The notes under the pieces are model-generated. The model saw nothing but the letters and a program-made list of their open reading frames with translations. It searched no databases and was not told the DNA's origin. A DNA stretch of 64,000 bases from Verrucomicrobiia bacterium (GTDB lineage Bacteria; Verrucomicrobiota; Verrucomicrobiia; Palsa-1439): positions 69,068-133,067 of the forward strand of contig JBBISF010000001.1 of the NCBI GenBank assembly GCA_037441425.1, written 5' to 3'. Positions within the stretch are counted from its first letter, which is position 1. Every line of letters begins with the position of its first letter. Position numbers and translations under genes: made by a program. Positions 10,103-61,273 of the stretch are shown piece by piece.

Positions 10103-10105
10103 CCA

Positions 10106-11186: not shown

Positions 11187-12266
11187 CTACCAGCGGGCGA
11201 TTTCCACGGCCAAGGCGAGGGCTTGTTCGTACACCACGTGCCGGGTGGGACAATCCAATTCCTGCGACAGCAGCGCGCCTTCGTCGTTCGGCCAGAGGGC
11301 GCGGCGCCGCGGGAGTTCGCACATCCGCGGCAGCCGCGCGACGGCGCTGGCGGTTTGCCGGCCGTGATCTTTGTGGACGACGAACTCTCCGGCAGCACTC
11401 TTGAGGGTGACGGCCATCAAGCCGACGTGGCGCGCTTCGGAATCGTGGCTGACGGTCAGGTGTAACCGGCGTTTCGCGACGGTTGGTGTCCAATCCAAGT
11501 GCGAAGCCAGCCAGCCGGCATATAACTCAGCGCGCAACCGGCCGCCCGGACCTTCACCGTGGATAATTTCCACGGATTCCAAGTGGGCGAGTTCGGTCCG
11601 GCATTCGGGGGTGTCGAACAGTTCCGCGGTCAAGCCGCGCCAGAACGCAAGGCGGGTCCAGCTCAAGTCGGCAAACCGGCAACGGCGATGCGCGGCAATT
11701 GTTTTCGCCAAGTCGGGCAGCGGAACCTCGTCCCAATACGAGGTATCGAAGATGAACCGGTCGGCCACAGCGAGAAGACGCCGGAAAAGGTCGGGACGTT
11801 TCAGGAAGTTGCCGCGCCACCAGAGCACGGTCGGCAAATCGGATTCGAGCAACGGCAGCACCGTCCCCGGCAGTTGGGCGACGCCGGGGCCGGCGGCGGC
11901 GATGGAGATTTGTTCGCAGCAGACTTGTTTGCGTTCGCCGCCGGCGAGGTGACAGTGCGCGGCGATGGACGCGCTGAGCGCGGCCTGTCGTTCCTCCGGG
12001 CGCGCGAGCAGGACGATGGCGCGACAAGGATGCCGGCTGGTGAGTGCGGCGATGATGTCCGCAGCGTGGTCGCGGGCGGTTTCGTCTTCGGCGTAGGCGA
12101 CGAGGTTGAAGAGGCTGGCGCGGGTGACGATGCCGGGTTCGTTCGCGGCGGCGATTTCCCAGAGGGCGGCAAGTTGGTGCTCAATCTCGACGACGTCCAC
12201 GGCGGTTTCGACACCGGCAGTGAAGGATTCGAGTCGCGGCGCGCCGGGCATTACGGTCGCCTCCAA
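11187..12266 (-). CDS. opcA: glucose-6-phosphate dehydrogenase assembly protein OpcA
   Basis: A 359-aa OpcA-like protein immediately downstream of zwf and overlapping it by 16 nt. Confidence 0.7.
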   Translation of the reverse strand: MEATVMPGAPRLESFTAGVETAVDVVEIEHQLAALWEIAAANEPGIVTRASLFNLVAYAEDETARDHAADIIAALTSRHPCRAIVLLARPEERQAALSASIAAHCHLAGGERKQVCCEQISIAAAGPGVAQLPGTVLPLLESDLPTVLWWRGNFLKRPDLFRRLLAVADRFIFDTSYWDEVPLPDLAKTIAAHRRCRFADLSWTRLAFWRGLTAELFDTPECRTELAHLESVEIIHGEGPGGRLRAELYAGWLASHLDWTPTVAKRRLHLTVSHDSEARHVGLMAVTLKSAAGEFVVHKDHGRQTASAVARLPRMCELPRRRALWPNDEGALLSQELDCPTRHVVYEQALALAVEIARW

Positions 12267-13780: not shown

Positions 13781-13817
13781 GCCGGGCAACGCACGGCAAC
13801 GTAGCACAGCCGGTCGG

Positions 13818-25754: not shown

Positions 25755-27692
25755 TCAGCGCAAATACGTATCCAATACCCGCAGCACTTCCGCCACGCTC
25801 CAGGCTTGGGCGAAACAACCCACCGGGTGGTGCGGTTCGTCGCCGTCGAAGATTTCGGAGATTGAACCCAAACCGGCCTCCTCCAGGTGCGCGAACAAAG
25901 GCTGCAACAACCGCGCCATTTCCTTCTTCTGCGGCTTACCCGGGCCGTGGACTCGGGCGTAAGCGTCACAGTACGGGCCGATCAACCACGACCACACCGT
26001 GCCTTGGTGATAGGCGCAATCGCGTTGCCAACGATTGCCGGCATAGCGGCCCACGTATTTCTCGTGCTGGGGCGACAAGCTGCGCAACCCGTACGGCGTG
26101 AGCAAATGTTGGGTGACCACTTCGAGCACGTGCTTTTGCTGCGTTTCATCCAGTGGCGAGTACGGCAGGCTCACCGCAAAAATCTGATTGGGACGCACGG
26201 ATGGGTCCCGGAAATCCTCGCGAACGACGTCGTAGAGATAGCCGCCCTCAGAGAACCAAAACGCTTTCAGGAAACTTGCCGCCACCCGGTCGGCTTCCTT
26301 GCGCAACGGCACGGCGGCATGAACGTCGGCGGCCACTTTTTCCTCCAACTCCGCCAGCATCAAAAGCGCATTCAACCACAGCGCATTGATCTCGACCGGC
26401 TTGCCGTGTCGCGGCGTGGGCACGTACCCGTCCACCTTCACATCCATCCAGGTAAGCTGCGTGCCCGCCTTGCCGGCCGTGATCAGACCGTCGGCGTCCG
26501 CATGAATGTCGTAGCGCGCGCCCGCCGCGTAACCCTTGATGATGTCACGACCGGCCGGCAAGAGGGCGCGGGTGCCGTCCTTGTCGCCGGTCGCCCGCCA
26601 GTATTTCCATACCGCCACCACGAACCACAATGCCGCATCCACGGTGTTGTACTCGGGGGTCTCGCCGGCATCGGGGAAGACGTTCGGCAACATCCCGCAG
26701 TCGCAGTACTTCGCATACGTCTGGAGAATCTGCCGGGCGACGTCGTAATGGCCAGTGGTCAACGTCAATCCCGGCAGAGCAATCATCGTGTCCCGACCCC
26801 AATCGGTAAACCACGGGTAACCGGCCAGCACGGTCAGATTGTCTTTCCCGCGCCGCGCAATGAACGAATCCGCGGCAATGATCAGTGCCCGCCGCACCGG
26901 GTCGGTTTCCCGGTCAAACTGGCTCCGCCGTTCGCGTTCCCGGGTCAACAACCCTTCCGCCTTGCCGTTCTTGCCCTCGGTGGAAACGACGAGATGGGCC
27001 GTTTGTCCAGCCGGCAGACGAAACGTCAGTTCAAAGGGCGTGAACAGGTCTTCCTCAAAATCCAATCCCCGTTCCTGTTCTATCGGGTAGATGAATCGCT
27101 GATACCAGTCCGGTTTCGTTTCAACCGCGTCGGGCCGGCAATGAAAATACAAACGCGGCAAGCCTGGGTACGGTTGAACGGATAGCCCGCGCTCGTTTCG
27201 CTCGACCGACAGATTGACGGTGTCGTTGCGCTCGGTGAGCGCGTTGTAATCCCGGCAGGCCAGCAACGGTCGTAACCGGAGTTCGATCGGGGCGCGCGAC
27301 CGGACATTCCGATAGCCAATGACGACCGTATTCTCGCCGTGAACCAGCGTGACCGTTTTCTCGATTTCGAAATCGCCGGTCACGTAGCGGAACAGCGGCC
27401 ACGGACGCAGTTGAAACTCGATTTGGATGTTGAACCCGTGGGGATACACCGTGCCGGGATAGAGATTGGTGGACAAATGCGCGTCGCCGACCTGTTCTTC
27501 GATTTTCGAGAGCAACACGTACCGCTCAACCGGCGGTTTGAGGGAGGCGACCAACAGACCGTGTTGCCGGCGGGTGTTGGCGCCGATGATGGTCGAACTG
27601 GCGAAGCCGCCGATGCCGTTGGTTTCCAGCCACTCCTTGGAGAGGGCCGTCTTAAGATCCTGACAATCTGTTTTGCCGAAGCTCGTCCGCAC
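25755..27692 (-). CDS. glycogen debranching enzyme (amylo-alpha-1,6-glucosidase family, GDE_N plus (alpha/alpha)6 barrel)
   Basis: N-terminal EWLETNGIGGFASSTIIGANTRRQHGLL and C-terminal GTVWSWLIGPYCDAYARVHG are typical of archaeal-type GDE. Confidence 0.8.
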   Translation of the reverse strand: MRTSFGKTDCQDLKTALSKEWLETNGIGGFASSTIIGANTRRQHGLLVASLKPPVERYVLLSKIEEQVGDAHLSTNLYPGTVYPHGFNIQIEFQLRPWPLFRYVTGDFEIEKTVTLVHGENTVVIGYRNVRSRAPIELRLRPLLACRDYNALTERNDTVNLSVERNERGLSVQPYPGLPRLYFHCRPDAVETKPDWYQRFIYPIEQERGLDFEEDLFTPFELTFRLPAGQTAHLVVSTEGKNGKAEGLLTRERERRSQFDRETDPVRRALIIAADSFIARRGKDNLTVLAGYPWFTDWGRDTMIALPGLTLTTGHYDVARQILQTYAKYCDCGMLPNVFPDAGETPEYNTVDAALWFVVAVWKYWRATGDKDGTRALLPAGRDIIKGYAAGARYDIHADADGLITAGKAGTQLTWMDVKVDGYVPTPRHGKPVEINALWLNALLMLAELEEKVAADVHAAVPLRKEADRVAASFLKAFWFSEGGYLYDVVREDFRDPSVRPNQIFAVSLPYSPLDETQQKHVLEVVTQHLLTPYGLRSLSPQHEKYVGRYAGNRWQRDCAYHQGTVWSWLIGPYCDAYARVHGPGKPQKKEMARLLQPLFAHLEEAGLGSISEIFDGDEPHHPVGCFAQAWSVAEVLRVLDTYLR

Positions 27693-32322: not shown

Positions 32323-34542
32323 TCACGCTGTATACGGCAGCGGGAATTGGGCGGTGAGGGCGCGTACTTTGCCGCGCACCTTGTCGGCAACGGCCAGGTT
32401 GCCGGGATTCTCCAGCGCTTCGGTCATCAACCCGGCAATCTGCTCCATCTCCGGCTCTTTCATGCCGCGGGTGGTGACGGCGGGCGTGCCGACACGGATG
32501 CCGGAGGCGACCATCGGTTTCTCGGGATCGAACGGAATCATATTCTTGTTCACCGTGATCCCGGCTTGGTCGAGCGCCTCCTGCGCAACCTTGCCGGTCA
32601 ATTTCTTCGGCCGCAGATCCACCAACATCAAATGATTGTCCGTGCCGCCACTGACGATCCGGAAACCGCGTTTGCTCAGGGCGGCCGCCAATACGGCGGC
32701 GTTCTTGACGATCTGGCGTTGGTAGTCCTTGAACTCCGGCCGCAACGCTTCCTGGAAACAAACGGCCTTGGCGGCAATGATGTGCATGAGCGGGCCGCCT
32801 TGGATGCCGGGGAAGATTTGGGAGTTCACCGCTTTCGCGTGCGCTTCCTTGCAGAGAATCAATCCCGCGCGCGGGCCGCGCAACGTCTTGTGCGTCGTGC
32901 TGGTCACGATGTCGGCGTGTGGAACCGGGTTCGCATGCACGCCGCCCGCGACCAGCCCGGCAATGTGCGCCATGTCCACCACCAACGCCGCGCCCACGGC
33001 CTTCGCGATGGCCGCAAATCCGGCAAAATCGAGCGTGCGCGGGTAGGCACTGGCTCCGACGACGATGATGCGCGGTTTCTCGGACTGAGCGAGCCGCGCC
33101 ACTTCGTCCATGTCGATGCGTTCCGTCTGCTGGCTCACGCCGTACGGCACGATCCGAAACAATCGGCCGGAGAAATTGACCGACGCGCCGTGCGTGAGGT
33201 GTCCGCCGAAGTTCAGGCTCATCGCCAAAATCGTGTCGCCCGGCTTGGCCAACGCGAAGTACGCGGCCATGTTGGCCTGGCTGCCGGAATGGGGCTGGAC
33301 GTTGGCATGTTCCGCGCCGAACAGTTGTTTGGCACGATCAATCGCCAATTGCTCCGCGACGTCCACAACCTCACAGCCACCGTAGTAGCGCTTACCGGGA
33401 TAACCTTCGGCGTATTTATTCGTAAGCACGCTGCCGGCCGCTTCGAGGACGGACGGGTTGACGAAATTCTCGCTGGCGATCAGCTCGATGTTTTCCTGTT
33501 GGCGTTGCTTCTCGCGTTGGACAACCGTGAAGATTTCCGGGTCGGTTTGCGCCAGCGCCGAACTCTTTTTCAGAGTCAGACCGGGTTTAAGCGGCGGCTG
33601 ATCCATCTTCTGCACCCGCCGCGCGTGCCGGCCGCCCGCAAACGGTGTCCTGAGCCAGACATCGAGAATGCGGACGGCCTGCTCGTTGTTCAGCTCGATG
33701 CCGGACAGGACAAGGACGTTGGCGTCGTTGTGTTCGCGACTGAGGCGCGCCCATTGCTCACTGCCGACCATCGCCGCGCGCACGCCGACGACACGGTTGG
33801 CGGCGATGCTCATGCCAATGCCACTCTTGCAGATCAATACGCCCCGCTCGGAATTGCCGGCGGCGACTTCCTCGGCAACCGCAAACGCGTAGTCCGGGTA
33901 ATCGCACGGCTCGGTCGAATTCGTGCCGAGATCGGTGAACTGATAACCTTGTTTGGTCAGCCACTCTTTCAACGCCGCCTTCATCTCCACGCCGCCGTGA
34001 TCGGCCCCCAACACGATGCGCGGCGTGACGGTCTGGGTTTCAGTGGTTTCGCTCAAGGTTTTCTTCATCACACGTTCCGTTTGATCAATGAACTCCAACA
34101 CCGAGGGCAAGGCGTCGCGGATTTGGTCGCGCGTTTGCCGGTACACTCCCACCGGCGAGCCGATCGGGTCGGCAATGTCCCGACTCTCGTCCGGCGGCAC
34201 TTCCTGAAACTCCCGCAGCACGAAAATCTTCTCCGCCGCCTCCGGGTACAACGCCTGCAGCAAATCCTGCTGCTGCCGCGTCATCGTGAACACGAAATCC
34301 GCCTGCTCGATCATCCCGGCCCGCAACGCCAAGCTGCGGTGATGCGTCAGATTACCGCCCAACTCCGCCATCACGTCCACGGCCAAATCGGTGGCCGGTT
34401 GCCCATCCACCGCGCCGATGCCGGCTGAGACGCACCGGACATCGCCGCGTTTCCGCGCGAGCTTGTCCATCAACGCTTCCGCCATTGGACTGCGACAGAC
34501 GTTGCCCGTGCACACAAACAAAATGGTTTTCACTTTTGCCAT
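32323..34542 (-). CDS. tri-domain fusion of low-molecular-weight phosphotyrosine/arginine phosphatase, ribose-5-phosphate isomerase B and serine hydroxymethyltransferase
   Basis: aa 1-157: [14 protein letters not shown] is the CX5R P-loop of LMW-PTP. aa about 175-305: [21 protein letters not shown]...[17 protein letters not shown] is RpiB/LacAB. aa about 313-739: ELIASENF...THKTLRGPR is SHMT with the PLP lysine. One uninterrupted 739-aa frame. In-frame Met codons at 34071 and 33606 mark the domain starts. Confidence 0.8.
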
Positions 34543-41938: not shown

Positions 41939-42016
41939 TGGCGGGAGTGACGGGGCTCGAACCCGCAACCTCTGCCGTGACAGGGCAGCGCTCTGAACCA
42001 GTTGAGCTACACCCCC
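41939..42016 (-). tRNA. tRNA-Asp (anticodon GTC), CCA encoded
   Basis: The reverse complement folds as a cloverleaf. Acceptor GGGGGTG/CACTCCC, D stem GCTC/GAGC, anticodon stem CTGCC/GGCAG, loop CTGTCAC, T loop TTCGAGC, then GCCA. Confidence 0.9.
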
Positions 42017-42108: not shown

Positions 42109-42185
42109 TGGTGGGCGCTAAAGGACTCGAACCTTTGACCCCCTCGGTGTAAACGAGGTGCTCTGGCCAACTGAGCTAAGCGCCC
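42109..42185 (-). tRNA. tRNA-Val (anticodon TAC), CCA encoded
   Basis: Acceptor GGGCGCT/AGCGCCC, D stem GCTC/GAGC, anticodon stem CCTCG/CGAGG, loop TTTACAC, T loop TTCGAGT, then ACCA. Confidence 0.9.
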
Positions 42186-49864: not shown

Positions 49865-50743
49865 CTACCGCACACCGGAAATGTCAACCGGATGTTTGGA
49901 CTCCCCGCCCGCCAGAGCGTGTCGCGCCCCGGCCAAGCGATATGCGCGGGGGCTTCGGGCGGTGAGCTTGCGGAAGACGCGGCTGAAGTAGAGCGGATCG
50001 TCGTAGCCGACTTGCCGCGCGATGTCGGCAACCAGCAAGGCGGTGTGCTCCAACAGATGTGCCGCGTGCTGGACACGCAACTGGGTGAGGTACTGCATGG
50101 GGGTCCGGGCGGTTTGACGCTTGAACGTCCGGAGCAGGTGGCCTTCGCTACATCCGCATAAACGAGTCAGATCGGGAAGGCAAATCGTCTCCGTGAAGTG
50201 ATCGTGCAAATAACGAATGACCCGGTTGGCCACGCTGTCTTCGCCCGGCTCTTTGCCCGCCGACGCCAGCCGCAGAAACCAGCCGACCGCCATCGCCGTC
50301 ATCCCGTCGAGTTCGTGTCCCACCCCGCCGCCGTGTTGCCGCGCGAAAATCCAGCACTGCTCCATAAATTTCGTCAGGGCTTGGCTTTGGACGGTGATCG
50401 GTTTCGGTAGGGTCCGGTGATTGAGCCGCGTCGTCCGAAATCCCAACCAGATCGTATCCAACACGCCCCCGCTGTCTTCCCGGTGCGACACATTGCGCGG
50501 GATCAGACAGACGGAGTTGACGGTCAGGGACAGACGTTCTTTCCACACGAGCGCGCCGTTGCCTTCCAAGACGCTAAACAATTCCCAGTAGTCGTGGGCA
50601 TATAAATGGGGGTTTTCCCGGGGGGCGCGCAGGCGGTCGAGGTACAACGGCGTGAACTCCGTTGACCGTCCCCGCAAGTGTTTGTCCTCCCAAAGATGTT
50701 CGCCGAACAGGTGCACGCACGGATTATTAAGCGGTTCGCGCAT
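49865..50743 (-). CDS. AraC-family transcriptional regulator (cupin sensor + HTH)
   Basis: C-terminal dual HTH ...IRYLHDHFTETICLPDLTRLCGCSEGHLLRTFKRQTARTPMQYLTQLRVQHAAHLL. Confidence 0.8.
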   Translation of the reverse strand: MREPLNNPCVHLFGEHLWEDKHLRGRSTEFTPLYLDRLRAPRENPHLYAHDYWELFSVLEGNGALVWKERLSLTVNSVCLIPRNVSHREDSGGVLDTIWLGFRTTRLNHRTLPKPITVQSQALTKFMEQCWIFARQHGGGVGHELDGMTAMAVGWFLRLASAGKEPGEDSVANRVIRYLHDHFTETICLPDLTRLCGCSEGHLLRTFKRQTARTPMQYLTQLRVQHAAHLLEHTALLVADIARQVGYDDPLYFSRVFRKLTARSPRAYRLAGARHALAGGESKHPVDISGVR

Positions 50744-50848
50744 GTCGGACAGCCTAGTGTGATCGGTTTGGATTGTCCATCTGTTAAAGCAGTCGGGTGC
50801 ATGGACGACAGGGGGTAGTTGCGCTAGCCTGACCGACGAGGTGGCGCC

Positions 50849-51574
50849 ATGAATCGAACAACCGAAATCGAGTTGTACAACCGGGATGGCTTCTTGATCG
50901 TGCGCGGCGCGGCCAAGGACGAACCACTAAAACGTCCGCAAAACGAGCTTGATCGGCTGCGGACTGACGTGGAAAACGGCACGTTGCGGGGCAATCATCT
51001 CATGGAAAATGATCGCCAGGCGCGCGTGGTGTTTGATCCTTACGATCACTCACCAACGTTGCGTGAGCTGGTAAACCGACCGGAGATGCTGGAGCGGGCC
51101 AAGGCCATCGTGGGCGGGAAAATCCATCTCCATCACACCAAATTGATGTGTAAGCCGGCATTGGAAGGCACGGCGCAACCGTGGCATCAGGACCATTATT
51201 ACTGGCCCGGCAAGAAACCCAATCAAATGGCGGTGTTCGTCTGCATTGATCCCAGCACCGAGGCCAACGGTTGCCTACGCTGCATTCCCGGCACCCACAC
51301 GAACGGCTTGCGCGAACATCATCAGGAATTTCACGAGAAAACAGGCGAGCGTCACTGGGTCTGCAACGTGTCGAAAGAAGAACTCGACCGGCAGGTGTTG
51401 TTCCTCGGCGAGCCGGGCGACCTGATTTTTTTCGGTTCGCTTACGATCCACGGTTCGGAGGGCAACCAGTCACCAATGCCACGCCGCGCAGTCATCTTCG
51501 AGTACGACGAACTGGGCAATCTACAACCCGGCATCGGCTGGGGCGCGCCGTTGCCCAAGGTGGAATGGACGTGA
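50849..51574 (+). CDS. phytanoyl-CoA dioxygenase-family Fe(II)/2-oxoglutarate oxygenase
   Basis: HQDHYYWP...CIDPSTEANGCLRCIPGTH is the HxD...H facial triad of the PhyH family. Confidence 0.8.
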   Translation: MNRTTEIELYNRDGFLIVRGAAKDEPLKRPQNELDRLRTDVENGTLRGNHLMENDRQARVVFDPYDHSPTLRELVNRPEMLERAKAIVGGKIHLHHTKLMCKPALEGTAQPWHQDHYYWPGKKPNQMAVFVCIDPSTEANGCLRCIPGTHTNGLREHHQEFHEKTGERHWVCNVSKEELDRQVLFLGEPGDLIFFGSLTIHGSEGNQSPMPRRAVIFEYDELGNLQPGIGWGAPLPKVEWT

Positions 51575-51581
51575 TGATTCC

Positions 51582-52610
51582 GTGAACCACCGGCTGGGTT
51601 GTTGGAGTTTAATGAGTATGCTTACTGTCACCACGTCGGCTGTCGGACGGGAGATTCCGCCGAACGATCCGGCGTTGCGCTATACCGGTTGCGTACGAGT
51701 GGATGCCAACGCCGAACACGCGCGGTTTGACCGGTGCGTGCCGGCGGATGGCGGCTTCCAGTATGATGCGCCCGGCACGCACGTCAGTCTGCGGACGGAT
51801 GCCCTGTCTATTGTGGCCCGGTTTCGGGGCAACGGCTTGCAGACGCGCCGGGATGCGGTCAATGGCGTTGGTGTGGTCATGGTGGACGGTCAACGAAGTG
51901 GAACTTACCGAGTGGACGGGACAGCCATCAACTCAGTGACGGTGTTGAACGTCACCAATGCGGTTATGCGTGACGTGGAAATCTGGTTGCCTTACGCCGA
52001 GTCCGTGGATTTTCTTGGATTGACCGTCAACGATACCGCGCGCTTGCAGCCCGTTCCCAAACGGGCGCGACCCCGGTATGTGGCATACGGCGATTCGATC
52101 ACCCAGGGGTTTTGGGCGACGGACGTGACGTTCACCTATCCGGTATTGGTGGCGATGCGCAACGGTTGGGAGTTGGTCAACCTCGGTTGTGGTGGGCGAC
52201 AAGCAACGGCGACCGATGGCCAGGTAATCGGTTCGGTGCCGGCGGATGTGATTACGATTCTGATCGGGTTCAACGATCATTACGGGAACAAACCGCTGGA
52301 TCGTTACCGGGCGGACGTGCGCGGGATGCTTCAACGCATCCGGGCTGCGCAACCGCAGACGCCCATTTACCTCATTACCCCGCCGTGGTCCACGGAGCCG
52401 TTTCCGACCAAATTGGGACTGCATTTGGAAGATTATCGGCGCGTGCTGCGCGCGATTGCAGCCGAAGCGCACGATGCGCATCTCCATATTGTCGAAGGAC
52501 CGGACCTGATACCAGCGGACGCGGGATTCTTCGCCGACGGCATCCATCCGAACGACCGTGGCTTTCGCAGTCTCGCGGATAAACTGGCCCCTCAATTAAA
52601 AACACCATGA
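51582..52610 (+). CDS. SGNH/GDSL hydrolase with N-terminal beta-sandwich domain (carbohydrate esterase-like)
   Basis: YVAYGDSITQG is block I with the catalytic Ser. DGIHPND is block V with Asp and His. Confidence 0.75.
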   Translation: MNHRLGCWSLMSMLTVTTSAVGREIPPNDPALRYTGCVRVDANAEHARFDRCVPADGGFQYDAPGTHVSLRTDALSIVARFRGNGLQTRRDAVNGVGVVMVDGQRSGTYRVDGTAINSVTVLNVTNAVMRDVEIWLPYAESVDFLGLTVNDTARLQPVPKRARPRYVAYGDSITQGFWATDVTFTYPVLVAMRNGWELVNLGCGGRQATATDGQVIGSVPADVITILIGFNDHYGNKPLDRYRADVRGMLQRIRAAQPQTPIYLITPPWSTEPFPTKLGLHLEDYRRVLRAIAAEAHDAHLHIVEGPDLIPADAGFFADGIHPNDRGFRSLADKLAPQLKTP

Positions 52611-53542
52611 CCGGCAAACAACGTTTCCTGAAAACACTGCGGTTCGAGCAACCGGACCGGCCGCCGCATTTTGAGACCATGTTTGAACTGGAGCACGACG
52701 CGTTCGGGCTGCAGTTCCCGGATCGCAACTCCTGGGATTGTTCCGGCGCGGCACGGGAGAAACAGATCGCCACGTGCATGACCGTGTACGAGCGGATCGT
52801 GGAGCATTATCAATGGGACGCCCTCTGCGTGTATTGGCCGTGGGGCGACCCGGCGGGGGTGCGGGCGGCGAAGAAAACATTTAGCGAACAAATCGCCATC
52901 GGCGGCATGGTCGGCGGGGGACTGTGGTGCATCGACCAGATCACGGATTGGGAACAGTTCGCCGGCGATATGGCGGAGTACCGTGATCGAATCCATGCCG
53001 AAGCCGAACACCGTTGCCGAGATGCATGCGAACGGATTGATCGTCTGACCGATGCCGGCGCGGATTTTGTTTATCTACCGCATGATGTGGCGTTTAACGG
53101 GGGAACATTCTGTTCACCAAAAGATTTCGCAGAGATTGTCACGCCGTATCTGGCGCGGTTGGTGGCCCGGGTGAAACAGCACGGCGCGATCGCCTTCTTC
53201 CACAGTGACGGCAACCTGATGGGCGTGCTCGACCAGATATTGGCCTGTGAACCGCATGCGTTGCAATCCATTGACCCGATGGCCGGCATGGACATCGCCG
53301 TGGTCAAGCAACGCACGGTCGGCAAGCTGGCCCTGATGGGCAACGTGCAATGTAATTTAATGCAGGACGGTCCGAAGGAAGCGATTCGGCAATCAGCGTT
53401 GTATTGCCTCCGCCACGGCAGCCCGGGCGGCGGCTACATCTTCTCCACCTCCAACACGATTTTCCCCGGCCTGCCGCTGGAGCATTACGAATACATGCTG
53501 GATGTCTTCCGAGAATTCTGCCAAGAATCCGCGCACGTGTGA
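52607..53542 (+). CDS. uroporphyrinogen-decarboxylase (URO-D)-like family protein
   Basis: URO-D/MtaA-like TIM barrel (LKTLRFEQPDRPPHFE...). ATGA overlap with the SGNH gene. Confidence 0.65.
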   Translation: MTGKQRFLKTLRFEQPDRPPHFETMFELEHDAFGLQFPDRNSWDCSGAAREKQIATCMTVYERIVEHYQWDALCVYWPWGDPAGVRAAKKTFSEQIAIGGMVGGGLWCIDQITDWEQFAGDMAEYRDRIHAEAEHRCRDACERIDRLTDAGADFVYLPHDVAFNGGTFCSPKDFAEIVTPYLARLVARVKQHGAIAFFHSDGNLMGVLDQILACEPHALQSIDPMAGMDIAVVKQRTVGKLALMGNVQCNLMQDGPKEAIRQSALYCLRHGSPGGGYIFSTSNTIFPGLPLEHYEYMLDVFREFCQESAHV

Positions 53543-55887
53543 AAACCATTCATCTGATTCCAAATGCCCATCTCGACCCCGTCTGGCTCTGGGACTGGCG
53601 CGAAGGCTTGAACGAAGGTCTCATCACCTGCCGCACCATTCTTGACTTGATGGACGAGTTTCCCGAACTCACATTCGTCCGCGGCGAAGCGGCCATTTAC
53701 CGGCACATCCAACGTCACGATCCGCCAACGTTCCGCCGCATCCTGCGGCAGGTGGAAGCGGGCCGGTGGGACATCGTCGGTGGCACGGTCGTTCAACCGG
53801 ACACGAACCTGCCGGCAACGGAGACGTTTCTGCGCCACTTCGAGCACGGGTTGGGCTATTTCCAGAAAACGTTTCACCGCCGGCCCGCCGTGGCGTGGGC
53901 AGCGGATTCATTTGGCCACAGCGCTGGCTGGCCGGACATCTACGCCGCCGCCGGCATGACCGGGGTCGCCTTCTCCCGGCCAGCTCCCGCGCAACAACCG
54001 GTATCCCGGCCGGCCTTTTGGTGGGAAGGCGCCAGCGGGGCGCGGATTCTGGCCTACCGGATTCCACTGGGCTGGTACGGCACGGAACGCGACGAAATCC
54101 CGCGCCGGCTCGACGCCTGCCTTCACGCCGCGCCCGATTGGGGATTGGACAACATCCCCATCTTCTGCGGACTCGGCAACCACGGTGGCGGGCCGACCCG
54201 CCGGCAGATGCAAGACATTCGTGCGTGGGCGGTGCGGCATCCCGAAGTGCGTGTCGTGTATTCGGGGTTGCACCGGTTGTTCGCCGCCTTGCGCCACGAG
54301 AAAAACCTGCCCACCCACCGGGGGGAGCTGAATTTCTGTCTGCGCGGCTGCTACGCCTCGGTGGCGAAACTCAAGTTCGCCTACCGGAAGACGGAAGCCG
54401 GTTTGCTCCGCGCCGAACGCAGCGACGCCGTCATCAGCGCGGCGACCGGCAAGCCGCCGGCAGATTTGCGCGAAGCTTGGGAATCGGTGCTCTTCAACAC
54501 GTTCCACGACATTCTGCCCGGCTCCAGCATCGAGCGGGCGTATGACGATCAACTCGCCTGGCTTGGCGGCGCGTACCACGCCAGCCAGCGCGCCGAATTG
54601 GATGCGTTGAACGCGTTGGCCGCTCGAATTGACACCACCGTAAAAATACCGGCGGGCGACAGGCCGAGCGGGGTGCCGCTGCTGGTGTGGAATCCGCATC
54701 CGTTTCCCTACCGGGGCCACGTCGAACTCGAAGCCTCGCTGGATTACCGGCCCATCTGGAAATACCAAAATCACCCCGCCGACCTGCCCGTGCGTGTCCT
54801 TGGTCCGAACCGCCAGCCGGTGCCATTCCAACTCATCGCCACCGAGCACGACTCGCTGCGGGATTTGGCGTGGCGCAAACGCGTTGTCGTCCCGGTCGCC
54901 ATTCCGGCGCTGGGGTGGAACATATTGGAAATGGGCTACGTCGAAGGCCTCCAACCGGCCGGCCGACAGTTCGCGAGCCCCTTCACCGTTCGGGCCGGGC
55001 GCGATATCCGGATTTACCGGAACGGCAAACCGTTCGTGACGCTGTCCGCCATCACCGTTGAGGACCCGTGGGGTTCGTGGGGCGGCATGAACGAAGAACC
55101 GGCCTCGATTGATTTGTCCACTGTCCGGCATCGTTGGCGCGTCGCCCGCGTGGAACCGCTGGAGCGCGGCCCGGAACGCACGGCGCTCTGGGTGCAACTG
55201 GTCGGCGGGCGCTCCCGGCTGGAACTCACTTTTTATCTCACCCGCGACCGCGATGCGGTGGACGTGGCAGCGCGGGTATTCTGGAACGAACGCTCCGCCC
55301 GCTTGAAGCTCGTGATGAGCGGCGGCGACCATGCGGAATTTGAAGTGCCGGGTGGCACCGTCAAGCGTGGGCCGTGCGGCGAAGTCCCGGGCGGCCGCTG
55401 GGTGCGCGTGCCCGGTAAGTTCGGTTTCGCCAGCGACGCGCTGTATGCGTTCGACTGCAAGAATGGCGCGTTGCGCGCGACGATTTGCCGCGCCAGCCGG
55501 TATGCCAGCGACGTGAAAATGGCGGCCCGCGCCGAGCCGTGGCAGCCGGCGGTGGATACCGGCGAGTTGCGTTTCCGGTTCCTGCTGGCGCCGGCCAACG
55601 CCGCGTTGCCGCAATTGGCGGCGCAGTTGGAGCAGCCACCGGTGGTGGTACACGCCGTGCCCAGCCCCGGCAAGTGGCCCCGGGCTGGTTCACTGGCGCG
55701 CATTGCGCCGGATTCGCTGACGGTGCTCGCCATCAAAGACGGCATTCTGCGGGTGCAGGAAACCGCCGGCCGCGCGACCACGCCGCGCGTCACGTGGCTC
55801 GGTAAGAAACTCAAGTTAACCCGCGTTGCGCCCTACCAAATCGAGACGTGGCGCATCGCCAAAACAGGAAAGAGGAAGCTGATATGA
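53539..55887 (+). CDS. GH38-family alpha-mannosidase
   Basis: The GTG start overlaps the upstream TGA (GTGA). HLIPNAHLDPVWLWDW...FVRGEAAIY...WDIVGGTVVQPDTNLP is the GH38 N-terminal catalytic-domain signature. The first about 45 aa of the listed ORF are readthrough. Confidence 0.8.
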   Translation: MKTIHLIPNAHLDPVWLWDWREGLNEGLITCRTILDLMDEFPELTFVRGEAAIYRHIQRHDPPTFRRILRQVEAGRWDIVGGTVVQPDTNLPATETFLRHFEHGLGYFQKTFHRRPAVAWAADSFGHSAGWPDIYAAAGMTGVAFSRPAPAQQPVSRPAFWWEGASGARILAYRIPLGWYGTERDEIPRRLDACLHAAPDWGLDNIPIFCGLGNHGGGPTRRQMQDIRAWAVRHPEVRVVYSGLHRLFAALRHEKNLPTHRGELNFCLRGCYASVAKLKFAYRKTEAGLLRAERSDAVISAATGKPPADLREAWESVLFNTFHDILPGSSIERAYDDQLAWLGGAYHASQRAELDALNALAARIDTTVKIPAGDRPSGVPLLVWNPHPFPYRGHVELEASLDYRPIWKYQNHPADLPVRVLGPNRQPVPFQLIATEHDSLRDLAWRKRVVVPVAIPALGWNILEMGYVEGLQPAGRQFASPFTVRAGRDIRIYRNGKPFVTLSAITVEDPWGSWGGMNEEPASIDLSTVRHRWRVARVEPLERGPERTALWVQLVGGRSRLELTFYLTRDRDAVDVAARVFWNERSARLKLVMSGGDHAEFEVPGGTVKRGPCGEVPGGRWVRVPGKFGFASDALYAFDCKNGALRATICRASRYASDVKMAARAEPWQPAVDTGELRFRFLLAPANAALPQLAAQLEQPPVVVHAVPSPGKWPRAGSLARIAPDSLTVLAIKDGILRVQETAGRATTPRVTWLGKKLKLTRVAPYQIETWRIAKTGKRKLI

Positions 55888-56621
55888 ATAAGAAAGTGGC
55901 CCTCATTACCGGTGCCGCGCGCGGCATCGGCTTCGGAATCGCCGCCTGCCTCGCGCGGGATGGCTTTCAAATCGCCATTGCCGATATGGATGGCGCGGCC
56001 GCCCAGAAGGCGGCGGACAAGTTTGGCGGGCTAGGCGTCGCCTGCGACATCACGCAGCGCCCCCAGGTCGTGCATCTCATCCAGAAGACGCTGGAGCGTT
56101 TCGGCCAGATTGACGTGCTCGTCAACAATGCCGGCATCTGTCCGTTCGTGGACGTGATGGAGATGAGTGAGGAGATGTTCAAGAAGACCATTGATGTGAA
56201 TCTGACCGGCGCGTTTCACTGCACCCAACTGGTCGCCAAGGAAATGATCAAGCGCGGGCAAGGCGGACGTATCGTGTTCATCACGTCGTTGGCGGTGAAT
56301 GTGACCGGCGCGGCGCAAGGCGACTACGCGGCATCCAAGGCGGGTCTGCACATGTTGATGAAGAGTTTCTCGATTGCGCTCGGCCCGCACGGCATCACCT
56401 GCAACGCCGTGGCGCCCGGGATGATTCTGACCGACATGACCCGGCATTACTGGGAACAACCCGGCCCCGCCGAGATGATCAAGAAACGGGTGCCGGTTGG
56501 CCGCATCGGGACGCCCGAAGACATCGGCAACGCCGTGGCGCTGTTGGTTTCCGACAAGGCCAACTACATCAATGGCGTCGGCCTCATTGTGGACGGCGGT
56601 CATCAAGCGGTGTGTGCATGA
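55884..56621 (+). CDS. SDR-family oxidoreductase
   Basis: TGAARGIGFGIA, NNAG and YAASKAG (Y-x3-K). ATGA overlap with the GH38 gene. Confidence 0.85.
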   Translation: MNKKVALITGAARGIGFGIAACLARDGFQIAIADMDGAAAQKAADKFGGLGVACDITQRPQVVHLIQKTLERFGQIDVLVNNAGICPFVDVMEMSEEMFKKTIDVNLTGAFHCTQLVAKEMIKRGQGGRIVFITSLAVNVTGAAQGDYAASKAGLHMLMKSFSIALGPHGITCNAVAPGMILTDMTRHYWEQPGPAEMIKKRVPVGRIGTPEDIGNAVALLVSDKANYINGVGLIVDGGHQAVCA

Positions 56622-58654
56622 GATGCACCACCGGCAAGTGGCACGGCGACCAGTACTACTTTGGGCTGCATTACGATCTGCACGCAAACAAGGGTGATGC
56701 CGAACTTGGCACCCGCTGCGGCGAGAAGGAACTCGTGCCGATGTTGCGGCGTATGGCGCCGGATTGGGTCCAGACCGACTGCAAAGGGCACGCCGGTTAC
56801 TTAAGCTGGTTTGCCAAAACGCCCGGCTCGGCGATCCCGCCCAAACTGAAGAAGGATGCGCTCCAGCAGTGGCGCGACGCGACGCGCAAGCTCGGCCTCC
56901 CGCTGCACTGCCATTACTCGGGTATTTGGGACCAGGCTGCGGGTGCGAAACATCGCGACTGGTGTGTGGTCGGTCCCACGGGCAAGGCGGTGGGCGCGCC
57001 GTTCGGCGGCAATGCGAACAAACCGACCTTCGAGAAGATGTGCCCCCGCTCGCCGTACCTCGATAAGTTGATGATCCCCCAGTTGCTGGAGTTGATCGAC
57101 CGCTACGACGTGGATGGTTTCTGGATCGACGGCGATCTGTGGGCCGCCGAGCCGTGCTACTGCCAACGCTGCCGCAAGGCATTTACGGCAAAGACTGGAC
57201 TGAAGTCGCCGCCAACTAACGAGAAGGATGCGCATTGGCCGCGCTGGTGGACGTTCACGCTGGAGAGCTTCGAGGAATACGTGACGCGTTACTGCGACGC
57301 CGTGCATCGCCACAAACCGGGCGTGCTGGTCTGCTCGAACTGGCTGCAGACGTTCACGAACCCCGGCGCGCCTAAAGTACCGACCGATTGGATCAGCGGC
57401 GACAACACCTATGTGTACGGTCTGGACGGCAGCCGTTGCGAAGCCCGGTTTCTGTCCACGCGCGGCAAACACTGGGACATCATGCTCTGGAACTTCTATT
57501 GCTCGCACGGGATGGGGCAGGCGGCTTCCCCGTGGACCGCCAAGCCCGCCCAGATGTTGATGCAAGAGGCGGCCGTACTACTGGCGTTCGGTGGGTCGGT
57601 GCAGATTTACGAAAACGGCGGTGGTGTGCGCGACGGCCGCTTGATTCCGTGGCGGCAAAACCGGTTGGGTACGGTCAGCCGGTTCGTCAAACAGCGCCGC
57701 GCTCTCTGCCAAAATACTGAAACGCTTCCGCAAATCGCCGTCCTGCACTCCGAACATCACATCCGCGCCACCACCCGCGGCAAAAACCTGATGTGGAACG
57801 TGGACACCACACCCGTCAGAGGCGCTGTATTTGCGTTACTCGAAAACCACTTCGGTGTGGACATCCTCGACGAATGGGCATTGCTCCCACGATTGGCCGA
57901 GTTTCCGGTGGTGGTCGCACCCGAGCGCGACGCCATGTCGGCGCCGATGGTGGCCGCCTTGCGAGAATATGTGCGGAATGGTGGCCATCTGATCGTGTCG
58001 GGTGCGGAGTCGTTCGACCGATTCAGCGGTGCGTTCCTCGGCGTGACGGCCGGCAAGATCGAGAAGAAGGCAACGTATCATATTCCCGCCACGGACGGTT
58101 CGGTGCCGTTATACAGCGAAGCTTGGCGGCTGGTGAAGCCGACGACGGCCAAGTCTCTTGGGCGGCTCGGTCGCCAGCCTTTTCGAGATAGTGAGTTGAC
58201 GCTGCATCCGGCAGCCACACTCAACCGGGTGGGCCGAGGTGCCGTCGCGTACATCCCGGCGGCCGTGTTCCGCGACTTTGGTCATAACCGCTACCCGCTC
58301 ACCCGCGCCTTTGTCGGCGAAGTCGTGCTCCAGCTCGCCGGCCGGTTCGAGATTGAAGTGACCGCGCCGGTTTGCGTGGACGTGGCGTTGCGGCGCAAGG
58401 GTGACAAATCCATCGTGCACCTCATCAACCGCTCTAGTGGCATCCCCAACCAACCGAATAACGGCGCTGTTGACGAGATTCCGCGTGTCGGCCCCATCAC
58501 CATGACGCTGCGCAGCCCCCGACGACCCGCAGCCGTTACCGTGGCGCTGGAGAAATGCGGCTGCGTCTGGAAATATGCCGCCGGCAAACTCACCGTCACG
58601 CTTGATCAGTTTGCCATTCACGCCGCCGTGGTCATCAGAAAGGCAAAGCCATGA
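56618..58654 (+). CDS. putative glycoside hydrolase (TIM-barrel GHL-type N-domain plus beta-galactosidase-trimerisation-like GATase1 domain)
   Basis: YYFGLHYDLH...DGFWIDGDLW in the N-domain. PVVVAPERDAMSAPMVAALREYVRNGGHLIVSG matches a GH42M-like domain. ATGA overlap with the upstream SDR. Confidence 0.45.
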   Translation: MRCTTGKWHGDQYYFGLHYDLHANKGDAELGTRCGEKELVPMLRRMAPDWVQTDCKGHAGYLSWFAKTPGSAIPPKLKKDALQQWRDATRKLGLPLHCHYSGIWDQAAGAKHRDWCVVGPTGKAVGAPFGGNANKPTFEKMCPRSPYLDKLMIPQLLELIDRYDVDGFWIDGDLWAAEPCYCQRCRKAFTAKTGLKSPPTNEKDAHWPRWWTFTLESFEEYVTRYCDAVHRHKPGVLVCSNWLQTFTNPGAPKVPTDWISGDNTYVYGLDGSRCEARFLSTRGKHWDIMLWNFYCSHGMGQAASPWTAKPAQMLMQEAAVLLAFGGSVQIYENGGGVRDGRLIPWRQNRLGTVSRFVKQRRALCQNTETLPQIAVLHSEHHIRATTRGKNLMWNVDTTPVRGAVFALLENHFGVDILDEWALLPRLAEFPVVVAPERDAMSAPMVAALREYVRNGGHLIVSGAESFDRFSGAFLGVTAGKIEKKATYHIPATDGSVPLYSEAWRLVKPTTAKSLGRLGRQPFRDSELTLHPAATLNRVGRGAVAYIPAAVFRDFGHNRYPLTRAFVGEVVLQLAGRFEIEVTAPVCVDVALRRKGDKSIVHLINRSSGIPNQPNNGAVDEIPRVGPITMTLRSPRRPAAVTVALEKCGCVWKYAAGKLTVTLDQFAIHAAVVIRKAKP

Positions 58655-59394
58655 AAATTGATCTCACCAACAAAATTGCCGTGGTCACCGGCGCGACCGG
58701 TGAATTGGGCCGGGTGATGGCGAGGAAGTTAGCGGCGTGCGGCGCACGCGTGGCCATCCATTATCACAAGGCTGCCGACAAAGCGGCGGCGCTGCAAAAG
58801 GAACTGCCGGGTTCCTGTGTCGTGCAGGCGGATGTGACCAAGCCCGCCGACATCCGCCGGATGCGCGATGAGATTCACCGGCAACTCGGTGCGCCGGACA
58901 TCATCGTGAACAACGCCGTCATCCAGTACCAATGGACGCAGGTGCTGCAACAATCAGTGGACGATTACCGGTCGCAGTTCGAGAGCTGCGTGTTGCACAA
59001 CGTGCTCATGGCGCAAACGTTCGTGCCGGCCATGATTGAGAAAAAGTGGGGGCGCGTCATCGCGATCAATACCGAGTGCGCCATGCAGAACTGGCCGAGT
59101 CAATCCGCTTACGTCTCCGGCAAGCGGGGCATGGACGGCGTGTTGCGGGTGCTCGCCAAAGAAGTTGGCGAACACGGCATCACCGTCAATCAAGTCGCCC
59201 CCGGCTGGACGGTCAGCGAAACCCGCCCAGCCGCCGGACGTCCCGACTGGTATCTCAACGGTGTCCCGCTGAAACGCTGGGGCGAGGATCGGGACATTGC
59301 CAACGCCGTCGCTTTCCTCGCGTCAGATTTGGCCCGGTTTATCACAGGTGTTTATCTTCCCGTCTGCGGCGGCAACGTGATGCCGGCCATTTAG
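58651..59394 (+). CDS. SDR-family oxidoreductase (FabG-like)
   Basis: VTGATGELGRVMA, NNAV and YVSGKRG. ATGA overlap with the upstream gene. Confidence 0.8.
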   Translation: MKIDLTNKIAVVTGATGELGRVMARKLAACGARVAIHYHKAADKAAALQKELPGSCVVQADVTKPADIRRMRDEIHRQLGAPDIIVNNAVIQYQWTQVLQQSVDDYRSQFESCVLHNVLMAQTFVPAMIEKKWGRVIAINTECAMQNWPSQSAYVSGKRGMDGVLRVLAKEVGEHGITVNQVAPGWTVSETRPAAGRPDWYLNGVPLKRWGEDRDIANAVAFLASDLARFITGVYLPVCGGNVMPAI

Positions 59395-59398
59395 TCTG

Positions 59399-60529
59399 AT
59401 GAAGATCGTTGTCGCGCTCGATAAGTTCAGGGGCAGTCTCACGGCGACGGAGGGGTGTGAAATTGTCCGGCAGGCGCTGCTGAAAATGCAGCCGGATTGG
59501 GAAATTGTGGTGAAACCGATGGCCGATGGCGGGGAGGGAACTGCTTCGGCATTGCAAACATCGCTCGGCGGCGCGTGGATCACGGCACCGGTGACCGGGC
59601 CATTGCCGGGAATGTCGGTGGACGCGCGTTATCTGTGGGTGGCAGAACCGCAATTAGCAGTCGTGGAGATGGCGAATGCAAGCGGGTTGGTGTTGCTGCC
59701 GCCGGAACGGCGTGACCCGCTCAAAACCACAACGTTCGGCACGGGCGAGTTGATTCGTCACGCGATGGAACGCGGAGCACGACGCATTCTGCTCGGCGTG
59801 GGCGGCAGCGCGACGGTGGACGGCGGGGTGGGGGCGGCGATGGCGTTGGGCGGGAAATTTCTGGATGAGAGTGGACGACCCGTTGGTCTGGGTGGTGGCG
59901 AGTTGGAGAAGATCGCCCAGATCGGACGGCCCGGCGGTCTGTCACTGCCGGTGATCGAAGTGCTCTGCGATGTGGATAATCCGCTGTGCGGTGAGCACGG
60001 CGCGGCGCGGGTGTTCGGTCCACAGAAGGGCGCGACGCCGGAGGGGGTGGCGCGTCTGGATGCCGGGCTGGCGCATTTGGCCCGGTTGGTTTGGGAACAA
60101 TTCGGGAAGAAAATCGCGGCGGTGCCGGGTGCGGGCGCAGCGGGTGGATTGGCGGCGGGCGCAGGGGCGTTCCTGGATGCGCGGTTGATGCCGGGCGCAG
60201 AAACGATCATGGCCTTAACAGAAATGGAAATCAGCTTGCGCAATGCTGATTGGGTGATTACCGGGGAGGGCCGATTCGATGCACAGTCGTTGCGCGGGAA
60301 GGTGGTCTCGGCTGTTACCAAATTGGCCAGGCAACATGGCGCACGAGTGGCTGTTTTGGCAGGGGCGGTGACGGTGGCGGAATCAGCGTATCGCGCGGCG
60401 GGCGTGGAGGTTGCGATTTCGTCGCAGCCCCCGGGAATGGCGCTGGAGCAGGCGTTGACGCGGGCCCCGGAATTATTGGCTGCCGGGGTTCAACGATTGG
60501 CGGCAAATTGTTTGGCGTCGGGGCGTTAG
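59399..60529 (+). CDS. glycerate kinase (GlxK/GarK family)
   Basis: MKIVVALDKFRGSLTA...PMADGGEGT...LLGVGGSATVDGGVGAA...VITGEGRFDAQSLRGKV is the glycerate kinase I family signature. Confidence 0.85.
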   Translation: MKIVVALDKFRGSLTATEGCEIVRQALLKMQPDWEIVVKPMADGGEGTASALQTSLGGAWITAPVTGPLPGMSVDARYLWVAEPQLAVVEMANASGLVLLPPERRDPLKTTTFGTGELIRHAMERGARRILLGVGGSATVDGGVGAAMALGGKFLDESGRPVGLGGGELEKIAQIGRPGGLSLPVIEVLCDVDNPLCGEHGAARVFGPQKGATPEGVARLDAGLAHLARLVWEQFGKKIAAVPGAGAAGGLAAGAGAFLDARLMPGAETIMALTEMEISLRNADWVITGEGRFDAQSLRGKVVSAVTKLARQHGARVAVLAGAVTVAESAYRAAGVEVAISSQPPGMALEQALTRAPELLAAGVQRLAANCLASGR

Positions 60530-60574: not shown

Positions 60575-61273
60575 ATGAGCGAAACCCTCACCGTTCTGCC
60601 GGCTCCGGCCCCGGAGACCAAAAAAGAGGTCATCCGGTTGGGTGATCTGTTTTCCGTGGCGGACCAGATTCAGGCGCTTTGTCTGGCGCAGAAGACAGCG
60701 GAGATCCGGCTGGTCAACGTGGCGCCCTCCGGCTGCCTCAACATCGTGGAAGGTGAGGTGGTGCACGCGCAGTTTGGCAATCGCACAGGATTGGAGGCGG
60801 CCATCGCGCTGATCAACTTGCGCGACCCGGCTTCCGAGATTCATACCGGCACCCTGCCCAAACAACGGACAATCCATCTGGGATTCGTCCACATCCTGCT
60901 GGAGGCGGCCGGGCGCAAAGACGAAACGCTGGCCGGTGAATACCCGTCGGTGGAGGCGAAGCTTGCGCCGGTGCCGGCCACGTTACAGGTGATTTTACCG
61001 GATCGCACCATCCATCATCTGCTGGAGCCGGGGCTGACATTGATCGGGCGTTCGCCCTTCAACGACATCGTCGTCCCGGACGAGACCATCTCCAAGCGGC
61101 ACGCGAGCATTGCGGTTTCCAGCGGCGGCGTGTTGCTGCGGGATTTGGATTCCACAAACGGCACGTTCGTCGAGGGGCAGCACGTCACGGATTGGCACTT
61201 AATCGGCCTGACGCACCTGAAGTTCGGCAACATCGACGCCTACTTCACGCCGCCACCCGAGCCGGAAAAATAA
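60575..61273 (+). CDS. DUF4388 (PATAN-like) plus FHA domain protein
   Basis: N-terminal GDLFSVADQIQALCLAQKTAEIRL...IVEGEVVHAQFGNRTGLEA. C-terminal FHA LIGRSPFNDIVVPDETISKRHASI...DLDSTNGTFVEGQ. Confidence 0.7.
   Translation: MSETLTVLPAPAPETKKEVIRLGDLFSVADQIQALCLAQKTAEIRLVNVAPSGCLNIVEGEVVHAQFGNRTGLEAAIALINLRDPASEIHTGTLPKQRTIHLGFVHILLEAAGRKDETLAGEYPSVEAKLAPVPATLQVILPDRTIHHLLEPGLTLIGRSPFNDIVVPDETISKRHASIAVSSGGVLLRDLDSTNGTFVEGQHVTDWHLIGLTHLKFGNIDAYFTPPPEPEK

Follow-up and report, generated by a model that had tools for sequence, protein, structure and literature searches.

An apparently mosaic operon joining a GH38 α-mannosidase, a GH151-like putative fucosidase and a glycerate kinase in a Verrucomicrobiia bacterium

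Organization of the locus

The 64,000 nt stretch of DNA analysed here, termed the window (contig JBBISF010000001.1 of assembly GCA_037441425.1, positions 69,068 to 133,067 of the forward strand), comes from a Verrucomicrobiia bacterium and contains an AraC-family regulator gene with eight genes diverging from it, which include those of a glycoside hydrolase family 38 (GH38) α-mannosidase and a glycerate kinase. An initial annotation, made from the sequence alone, had proposed that this gene set serves the catabolism of a mannosylglycerate-type compatible solute. The locus was re-examined with an open reading frame (ORF) map and a Pfam scan of the window, and with NCBIfam equivalog models, whose curated cut-offs were used for the family tests. 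The ORF map agrees with the initial annotation on the divergent AraC gene, the eight same-strand genes and their coordinates, and Pfam confirms every one of its domain calls.

The AraC-family regulator (292 aa; 49865..50743, minus strand) carries HTH_18 (78 bits) and HTH_AraC (57 bits) domains. An intergenic region of 105 nt (50744..50848), read from the sequence, separates its gene from the structural genes, all of which are on the plus strand. The first of these (50849..51574) encodes a PhyH-family Fe(II)/2-oxoglutarate dioxygenase of 241 aa (PF05721, 123 bits). It is followed by the genes of a two-domain SGNH/GDSL esterase (51582..52610; 342 or 330 aa; Lipase_GDSL_2, 95 bits, residues 168–328) and of a 311 aa protein of the uroporphyrinogen decarboxylase (URO-D) superfamily (52607..53542; PF01208, 91 bits). 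The GH38 gene (53539..55887) has a GTG start and encodes a protein of 782 aa with the domains Glyco_hydro_38N (PF01074, 169 bits, cut-off 25) and Alpha-mann_mid (PF09261, 52 bits, cut-off 31). Downstream are two genes for short-chain dehydrogenases/reductases (SDRs), the aldose-1-dehydrogenase-like SDR1 (55884..56621; 245 aa) and the FabG-like SDR2 (58651..59394; 247 aa; adh_short_C2, 150 bits), and between them lies the gene of a GH151-like, three-domain putative α-L-fucosidase of 678 aa (56618..58654; Pfam GHL6 and GH42M). The eighth gene (59399..60529) encodes a class-I glycerate kinase of 376 aa (PF02595, 423 bits). A ninth same-strand gene, which encodes a DUF4388+FHA protein, begins 30–45 nt past the kinase gene (60560 or 60575 to 61273).

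The genes from PhyH to the kinase are spaced by 7, −4, −4, −4, −4, −4 and +4 nt. All five overlaps previously reported, at 52607, 53539, 55884, 56618 and 58651, are present; four are of the ATGA type and one, at the GH38 start, is GTGA. The operon supplies five of the eight 4 nt overlaps found at the 29 same-strand junctions of the whole window, and an unbroken run of five is not a product of chance. Seven of the eight genes had also been described as starting within 8 nt of the preceding stop, and one of these starts may differ. Public gene calls for the contig are identical for eight of the nine genes, the exception being SGNH, for which they give the ATG at 51618 (330 aa) instead of the GTG at 51582 (342 aa); with the former, the PhyH–SGNH gap may be 43 nt rather than 7 nt. 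All eight genes thus face the same way, and their junctions, which comprise five overlaps, one 4 nt gap and one gap of 7 (or 43) nt, are of the kind expected in a single operon. A separate Logan assembly has the identical order GH38-SDR1-GHL6-SDR2-kinase, and therefore the arrangement is not an assembly chimera.

The promoter and operator are presumed to lie in the 105 nt intergenic region, although neither a sigma-70 consensus nor an inverted repeat nor an Rfam element was detected there, and a repeat search returned two short two-copy direct repeats alone, which are unconvincing as operators. It should be pointed out that in a scan of 49.5–61.6 kb for sigma-70 and terminator consensus sequences, sites were rarer than in shuffled controls, and such a scan is uninformative for the host phylum. 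The scan therefore permits no decision on whether the kinase gene has its own promoter, and the same limit applies to its failure to detect a terminator or promoter in the SDR2–kinase gap.

The GH38 α-mannosidase

The GH38 protein has no signal peptide. Beyond its two well-scoring domains there is a weak match to the C-terminal β-sandwich PF07748 (17 bits, under the cut-off of 25), and a precomputed PF07748 match is present in many members of the same GH38 clade. In an alignment of 22 clade members with Escherichia coli MngB, H11, D13, D123 (in the motif DSFG), H323 and D324 are invariant. By analogy with other GH38 enzymes, we take H11 and D13 to be metal ligands and D123 the nucleophile, and the HD motif is assigned in the same way. 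Metal-binding and catalytic residues are thus intact.

The proposal of mannosylglycerate-type catabolism drew on the joint presence of GH38 and glycerate kinase genes, with E. coli MngB as the precedent. MngB is a GH38 enzyme that can act on a mannosylglycerate derivative. Like MngB, the window protein is a cytoplasmic GH38 whose catalytic domain begins at the very start of the chain, and the five residues named above are common to the two. However, the MngB equivalog model (NF007331) gives 50.9 bits against a cut-off of 1138 and covers residues 2–326 only, and a BLASTP alignment with E. coli MngB shows 22% identity over 359 N-terminal residues only. By these measures the protein is not MngB-like, which counts against the proposal. 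The gene contexts differ as well. The E. coli mngRAB locus has a phosphotransferase system (PTS) transporter and a GntR-type repressor, whereas the cluster and the ORFs of the window that were scanned with Pfam yielded no mng partner gene, i.e. no PTS or GntR gene corresponding to MngA or MngR. Conversely, genes for a glycerate kinase, an SDR, a dioxygenase and a second hydrolase are missing from the mng locus.

The closest solved relatives are Ams1-type α-mannosidases (PDB 7VQO, 6LZ1 and 5JM0), i.e. cytosolic class-II enzymes such as yeast Ams1, to which residues 4–340, with the catalytic and middle domains, align best (E 7e-41 to 1e-32). Matches to the Enterococcus faecalis structures 3LVT/5KBP (E 1.9e-7) and to SpGH38 (2WYH; E 2.7e-4) are weaker. 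The Ams1-type group also includes the entries 7UFR–7UFU, presumably bifidobacterial N-glycan GH38 enzymes. Ams1-type enzymes carry out exo-trimming of free oligomannose in the cell. They differ from the window protein in having an N-terminal extension of ~280 residues, and the alignment begins at about residue 285 of their chains.

The window protein belongs to a very large clade (48–79% identity) with members in Planctomycetota, Verrucomicrobiota, Lentisphaerota, Kiritimatiellota and other phyla; its best match among GTDB representatives is 72% identical. The clade is centred on the Planctomycetota–Verrucomicrobiota–Chlamydiota (PVC) bacteria and has no characterized member. Judged by its sequence relatives alone, which are Phycisphaerae and other PVC bacteria, the uncultured host would be a Phycisphaerae-like member of this group.

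The GH151-like protein

The protein encoded between the two SDR genes had been described as a second GH-like enzyme. The hydrolase likeness stands and can now be made more specific. A phmmer alignment with 6TVK, the structure of the GH151 α-L-fucosidase ALfuk2 from Paenibacillus thiaminolyticus, spans the entire protein (E 4.8e-17; 21% identity). An AlphaFold model with a predicted local distance difference test (pLDDT) value of 90 has a three-domain fold, consisting of a TIM barrel, a Rossmann-like domain and a β-sandwich, and 6TVK is by far the top Foldseek match (E 3.7e-42; template modelling (TM) scores of 0.79/0.81). GH42 enzymes come next, at 1e-27. Modelling and alignment together point to a GH151-like putative α-L-fucosidase homologue.

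The assigned catalytic residues of ALfuk2 are the nucleophile Asp154, the acid/base Glu235 and a complementing His503 (PMC10154630). D171 of the window protein, in the invariant motif DGFWIDGD, aligns with residue 183 of the 6TVK chain, which corresponds to ALfuk2 D154 if the 29-residue tag offset deduced from the chain lengths of 689 and 660 is correct. The two proteins thus have the full-length three-domain architecture and the nucleophile Asp in common. The remaining two positions are ambiguous, since at 21% identity both lie in low-confidence parts of the alignment: Ser260, flanked by the invariant D257 and D262, is found at the position of the acid/base Glu235, and the His that would be the counterpart of His503 is two positions off.

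A review (PMC10154630) gives aryl-fucosides and fucosyl-disaccharides as the only substrates of GH151 enzymes. The restriction of ALfuk2 to such small substrates fits a finishing role in the cytoplasm, and the GH151-like identity points to fucosylated glycans and not to compatible solutes. Homologues elsewhere, which are 70–79% identical, adjoin GH95 and GH29 fucosidase genes or are solitary.

PhyH, SGNH and URO-D-like proteins

The best NCBIfam match of the PhyH protein is ectoine hydroxylase, at 82.6 bits far under the cut-off of 336. Its sequence has the HxD motif (WHQDH) and a distal His. The nearest solved relatives of the SGNH protein are the two-domain SGNH proteins 3SKV and 4LHS. Export of the esterase was considered, a reading that hinges on the GTG start at 51582.

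The AlphaFold model of the URO-D-like protein (pLDDT 93) resembles UroD (2EJA) and an MtaA-like methyltransferase (4AY7/8) in Foldseek, with TM scores of 0.74–0.78 and 13–17% identity. A sequence search of the PDB gave no match, and no folds other than those of UroD, MtaA and MetE were retrieved; therefore no function can be transferred. Equivalog scores are well below cut-off for both HemE (26.5 bits vs 303) and MtaA (36.7 vs 400). The zinc motif of MtaA is His-x-Cys...Cys. Where MtaA has H-x-C, the window protein has H199-S-D201.

URO-D-like homologues that are 63–82% identical are found across phyla. Those of 67–80% identity are either solitary or directly 3′ of an SGNH gene, and the SGNH-then-URO-D pair recurs in Hydrogenedentes next to GH106 and melibiase genes (positions 8838–10939 of loci L181/L182). 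In sugar loci of Hydrogenedentes, Akkermansia-like bacteria and Kiritimatiellia, the URO-D genes are seen to adjoin SGNH, GH38, GH106, GH32, Gfo/Idh/MocA and ATP-binding cassette (ABC) substrate-binding protein genes.

The two SDRs and the glycerate kinase

SDR1 passes the glucose 1-dehydrogenase subfamily model NF005559 (222.8 bits vs a cut-off of 215). Its top NCBIfam match is L-rhamnose 1-dehydrogenase Lra1 (NF053807), at 245.3 bits under the cut-off of 400, and its best PDB match is 7B81/7DO5, which we take to be L-rhamnose 1-dehydrogenase. SDR2 reaches no NCBIfam equivalog cut-off and is generic FabG-like. SDR1 thus resembles the LRA1-type sugar 1-dehydrogenases of the non-phosphorylative L-rhamnose, L-fucose and aldohexose pathways, and a second SDR also occurs in the diketo-hydrolase variants of such pathways. 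The likeness is incomplete, however: SDR1 is under the Lra1 cut-off, and a search for lactonase, dehydratase and aldolase genes across the window found none; the hydrolase partner gene is likewise missing from the window.

The kinase matches TIGR00045 over its full length with 408.9 bits (cut-off 168.45) and reaches neither the 2-kinase nor the 3-kinase equivalog cut-off. Its sequence is that expected of a bona fide class-I glycerate kinase (GlxK/GarK family). The gene starts 4 nt past the SDR2 stop and is probably co-transcribed with the operon in this genome, and the short gap leaves room for a local functional link.

Conservation and mosaic history of the operon

The initial annotation had suggested that co-occurrence of the genes be checked in other genomes. 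For this comparison, 170 loci that contain a GH38 homologue were gathered from collections of genomes and metagenomes and searched by tblastn with all window proteins. These represent 136 non-redundant groups and 2.6 Mb, 98 with at least 3 kb downstream of GH38; many of the contigs are short. Not one of the 170 loci showed a glycerate kinase gene at a distance of up to 10 kb from its GH38 homologue. The pairing on which the mannosylglycerate proposal was built is thus not seen in these loci, and the nearest relative clusters stop at SDR2.

What does recur is a smaller gene set. The closest relatives, loci L005-7 and L091-92 (GH38 79% identical), have a divergent AraC gene followed by PhyH, a 64 aa URO-D remnant, GH38, SDR1 and SDR2. 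A Phycisphaeraceae locus, L013 (GH38 72%), has the order PhyH-URO-D-GH38-SDR1-SDR2, its PhyH gene being in the equivalent position, and L073, from an Abditibacteriaceae genome, has SDR1-SGNH-GH38-SDR2 followed by integrase genes. Orthologues of SDR1 (60–82% identity) and SDR2 (64–86%) adjoin GH38 in L005-7, L013 and L073. The gene-set conservation check therefore gave a divided answer: the PhyH/URO-D/GH38/SDR/SDR cassette is found again, but the GH151-like gene and the kinase gene are absent by tblastn from all three lineages with an orthologous cassette. This argues that both are specific additions of the window's lineage.

The URO-D remnant is instructive. In L005 (positions 8080–8274), and also in L006, L007, L091 and L092, it is in frame and 79% identical to residues 244–304 of the window protein, and its stop still overlaps the GH38 start. 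DNA similarity in L005 persists briefly past the PhyH stop, up to the deletion junction. Together these features show that the ancestor had both SGNH and URO-D and that a deletion removed the first and most of the second from the L005 lineage, and they mark that deletion as recent.

The regulator has a different history from that of the structural genes. The window AraC is 38% identical to the divergent AraC of L005-7 (minus strand, 6371–7078 in L005), whereas the structural genes are 73–86% identical between the window and these loci; PhyH, for instance, is 73% identical. Perhaps the AraC gene was replaced, or it evolves faster than the genes next to it.

By these comparisons the operon is a mosaic. 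A conserved, uncharacterized cytoplasmic cassette of PhyH, SGNH, URO-D-like, GH38 and two SDR genes, which related Phycisphaerae also carry and part of which recurs in an Abditibacteriaceae genome, has received the GH151-like gene between its SDR genes and the kinase gene at its end, in this lineage only.

Neighbours of the GH38 clade

Genes within 6 kb of GH38 were clustered and annotated with Pfam, and are counted in locus groups out of 136. Sugar regulators of the GntR/LacI type, in 19 groups, are the most frequent, ahead of Gfo/Idh/MocA oxidoreductases in 11. URO-D-like proteins occur in seven groups, often within 3 kb, and SDRs in six. Other glycoside hydrolases are well represented: GH2 β-mannosidase-like proteins and second GH38 copies are found in six groups each, GH141-like and GH28-like proteins in five each, GH39-like proteins in four, and GH95-like and DUF5703 proteins in four and three. 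SSF transporter genes lie directly 3′ of GH38 in four groups. This spectrum, with its repeated joint occurrence of mannosidase and fucosidase families, is a signature of oligosaccharide catabolism and not of compatible-solute use. In loci of Akkermansia-like bacteria, Kiritimatiellia, Lentisphaerae and Phycisphaeraceae, URO-D-like genes are no more than ~3 kb away from the GH38 homologue, and L103 (6770–7729 and 11960–13099) and L069 (4844–6016 and 8866–9900) have two URO-D copies each.

Function of the operon

The reading favoured here, in which we place about even confidence, is that of an AraC-controlled, translationally coupled catabolic operon of mosaic origin that carries out the cytoplasmic finishing of imported decorated manno- or fucosides. 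Transporters encoded elsewhere would import small decorated manno- or fucosyl-oligosaccharides. The SGNH esterase would strip acyl groups, GH38, with its Ams1/MAN2C1-like catalytic domain, would cleave terminal α-mannose, and the GH151-like enzyme may take α-L-fucose off very short substrates. SDR1, as an enzyme of the aldose 1-dehydrogenase type, would then convert the released sugar to a lactone, and the PhyH protein, the URO-D-like protein and SDR2 could provide further tailoring steps. Glycerate for the kinase might come from a non-phosphorylative cleavage route further down the pathway, or the kinase gene might merely be co-transcribed; most likely it is a late add-on that does not define the pathway. 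Several points weigh against this reading. All substrate assignments are drawn from family membership, and Pfam scans found no transporter, lactonase, dehydratase or aldolase in the operon, which leaves the route past SDR1 incomplete. Plain glycan trimming would not usually involve two SDRs, a dioxygenase and a URO-D-like protein, and the operon may act instead on one specific small-molecule substrate. In addition, the 4 nt SDR2–kinase gap could reflect selection for co-expression, and in about one-quarter of the compared loci the sequence ends less than 3 kb past GH38.

The question of the kinase separates two of the alternatives. In one, the kinase and FHA genes are unrelated housekeeping genes that abut the operon and are read through, a possibility that we take seriously while holding it only tentatively. 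The kinase is missing from every related cluster, and its absence from all 170 loci agrees with the ~0.5 chance occurrences in 2.6 Mb that we estimate if a 5 Mb genome has roughly one kinase gene; moreover, the unrelated DUF4388+FHA gene follows at a distance of 30–45 nt, so that close spacing here does not guarantee a common pathway. On the other hand, the gap is 4 nt and no terminator or promoter was detected in it, within the limits of the consensus scan noted above, and an aldose 1-dehydrogenase-type SDR may pass its product to a non-phosphorylative route with glycerate as an end product. In the other, which is the model of the initial annotation, the kinase is central: the operon degrades mannosylglycerate, glucosylglycerate or a glycerate-capped mannoside, GH38 frees glycerate and the kinase phosphorylates it. 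The bona fide kinase, probably co-transcribed, and a cytoplasmic GH38 with intact catalytic residues are what such a pathway would need, and E. coli MngB, as annotated in its locus, provides a GH38 precedent. The GH38 sequence, however, matches MngB poorly and over the N-terminal domain only, and is nearer to Ams1-type enzymes than to the SpGH38 or E. faecalis GH38 structures. The kinase is missing from the compared loci and from all three cassette lineages, the Pfam-scanned ORFs of the window include no MngA-type PTS transporter, and the PhyH, URO-D, SGNH and fucosidase-like genes and both SDR genes are left unexplained. The model is conceivable in this single genome, but it has neither comparative nor sequence support and we regard it as very improbable.

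A further alternative starts from the cassette itself. PhyH-URO-D-GH38-SDR-SDR, with or without SGNH, may constitute a dedicated pathway for one decorated mannoside, e.g. an O-methylated and/or O-acylated one as in algal N-glycans, in which the dioxygenase and/or the URO-D-like enzyme would take off a non-glycosidic group and the SDRs would oxidize or reduce the product. The Phycisphaeraceae locus keeps all five families and their order although its PhyH and URO-D proteins are only 37% and 28% identical to those of the window, which suggests selection on the combination of families. In the integrase-flanked Abditibacteriaceae locus, GH38, SDR1 and SDR2 are 49–64% identical, URO-D-like genes lie near GH38 in the four groups of bacteria named in the previous section, and the window genes are tightly coupled in translation. 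But L005-7 have lost SGNH and most of URO-D and retain PhyH, GH38 and the SDRs intact, and therefore URO-D and SGNH are dispensable for the core. A URO-D-like gene that is 80% identical is found in a locus (L178) without sugar-related genes, the URO-D-like protein does not have the Cys ligands of the MtaA type, no corrinoid protein is encoded nearby, and literature searches gave no biochemical precedent. On balance we consider a dedicated pathway unlikely. More speculative still, and doubtful at present, is the idea that the PhyH-URO-D-like-GH38-SDR-SDR cassette represents an undescribed route for modified mannosides, in which the H-x-D URO-D-like protein and the Fe/2-oxoglutarate dioxygenase remove an O-methyl- or carboxyl-type decoration. 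A biosynthetic cluster was also considered, and is ruled out by the two exo-glycosidase families and the esterase, by the lack of a glycosyltransferase and by the catabolic GH neighbours in related loci.

Other features of the window

A second mannose-related locus lies at 3136–11173 on the plus strand. It begins with a GH99/GH71-like protein (3136–4503) and includes genes for a substrate-binding protein (6589–8310), two permeases (8297–9181 and 9185–10102) and a GH130 β-mannoside phosphorylase (10106–11173), the ABC-transporter and GH130 genes being joined by 3 nt gaps. This ABC-transporter/GH130 locus could be a source of, or a complement to, the substrates of the GH38 operon.

The only other feature of the window linked to mannosylglycerate is a weak match (E 1.6e-10) to the MGH1-like domain, which takes its name from mannosylglycerate hydrolase, in a glycogen-debranching-type protein; the match is far below the GDE_N/GDE_C assignment of that protein. 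The GDE_N/GDE_C gene and, separately, a G6PD-OpcA gene pair are at 25755–27692 and 11187–13807, both on the minus strand. A 739 aa ORF at 32323–34542 (minus strand) looks like a triple fusion of a low-molecular-weight phosphotyrosine phosphatase (residues 7–146), an RpiB/LacAB isomerase (176–313) and a serine hydroxymethyltransferase (330–705). An Rfam scan of the window found no riboswitch; its sole matches are two tRNA genes at ~42 kb (41942–42016 and 42112–42185, minus strand).

Significance

The claim that the gene combination is undescribed has held up: searches of the literature on GH38 with mannosylglycerate, on GH38 with GH151 and on URO-D with glycans yielded no description. The gene set is new to the literature searched; its parts are known families, and as a whole it conforms to an AraC-regulated operon for the finishing of glycosides in the cytoplasm. 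If the favoured reading is true, the operon is one further lineage-specific example of glycan finishing, and the practical value of the analysis is a corrected annotation, in which GH38 is probably not of the mannosylglycerate type, the GHL6 protein is GH151-like and the kinase is a likely add-on.

Of main interest is the recurrence across phyla of an uncharacterized GH38 clade together with URO-D-superfamily, PhyH and SDR genes. These partners have no known role in carbohydrate catabolism. Should the URO-D-like protein and the dioxygenase indeed remove sugar decorations, the URO-D-like proteins would represent a new class of carbohydrate-active accessory enzymes, widespread in PVC bacteria. 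These bacteria are major degraders of algal and host glycans, and the characterization of a single cassette of this kind might uncover novel chemistry by which they tailor sugars.

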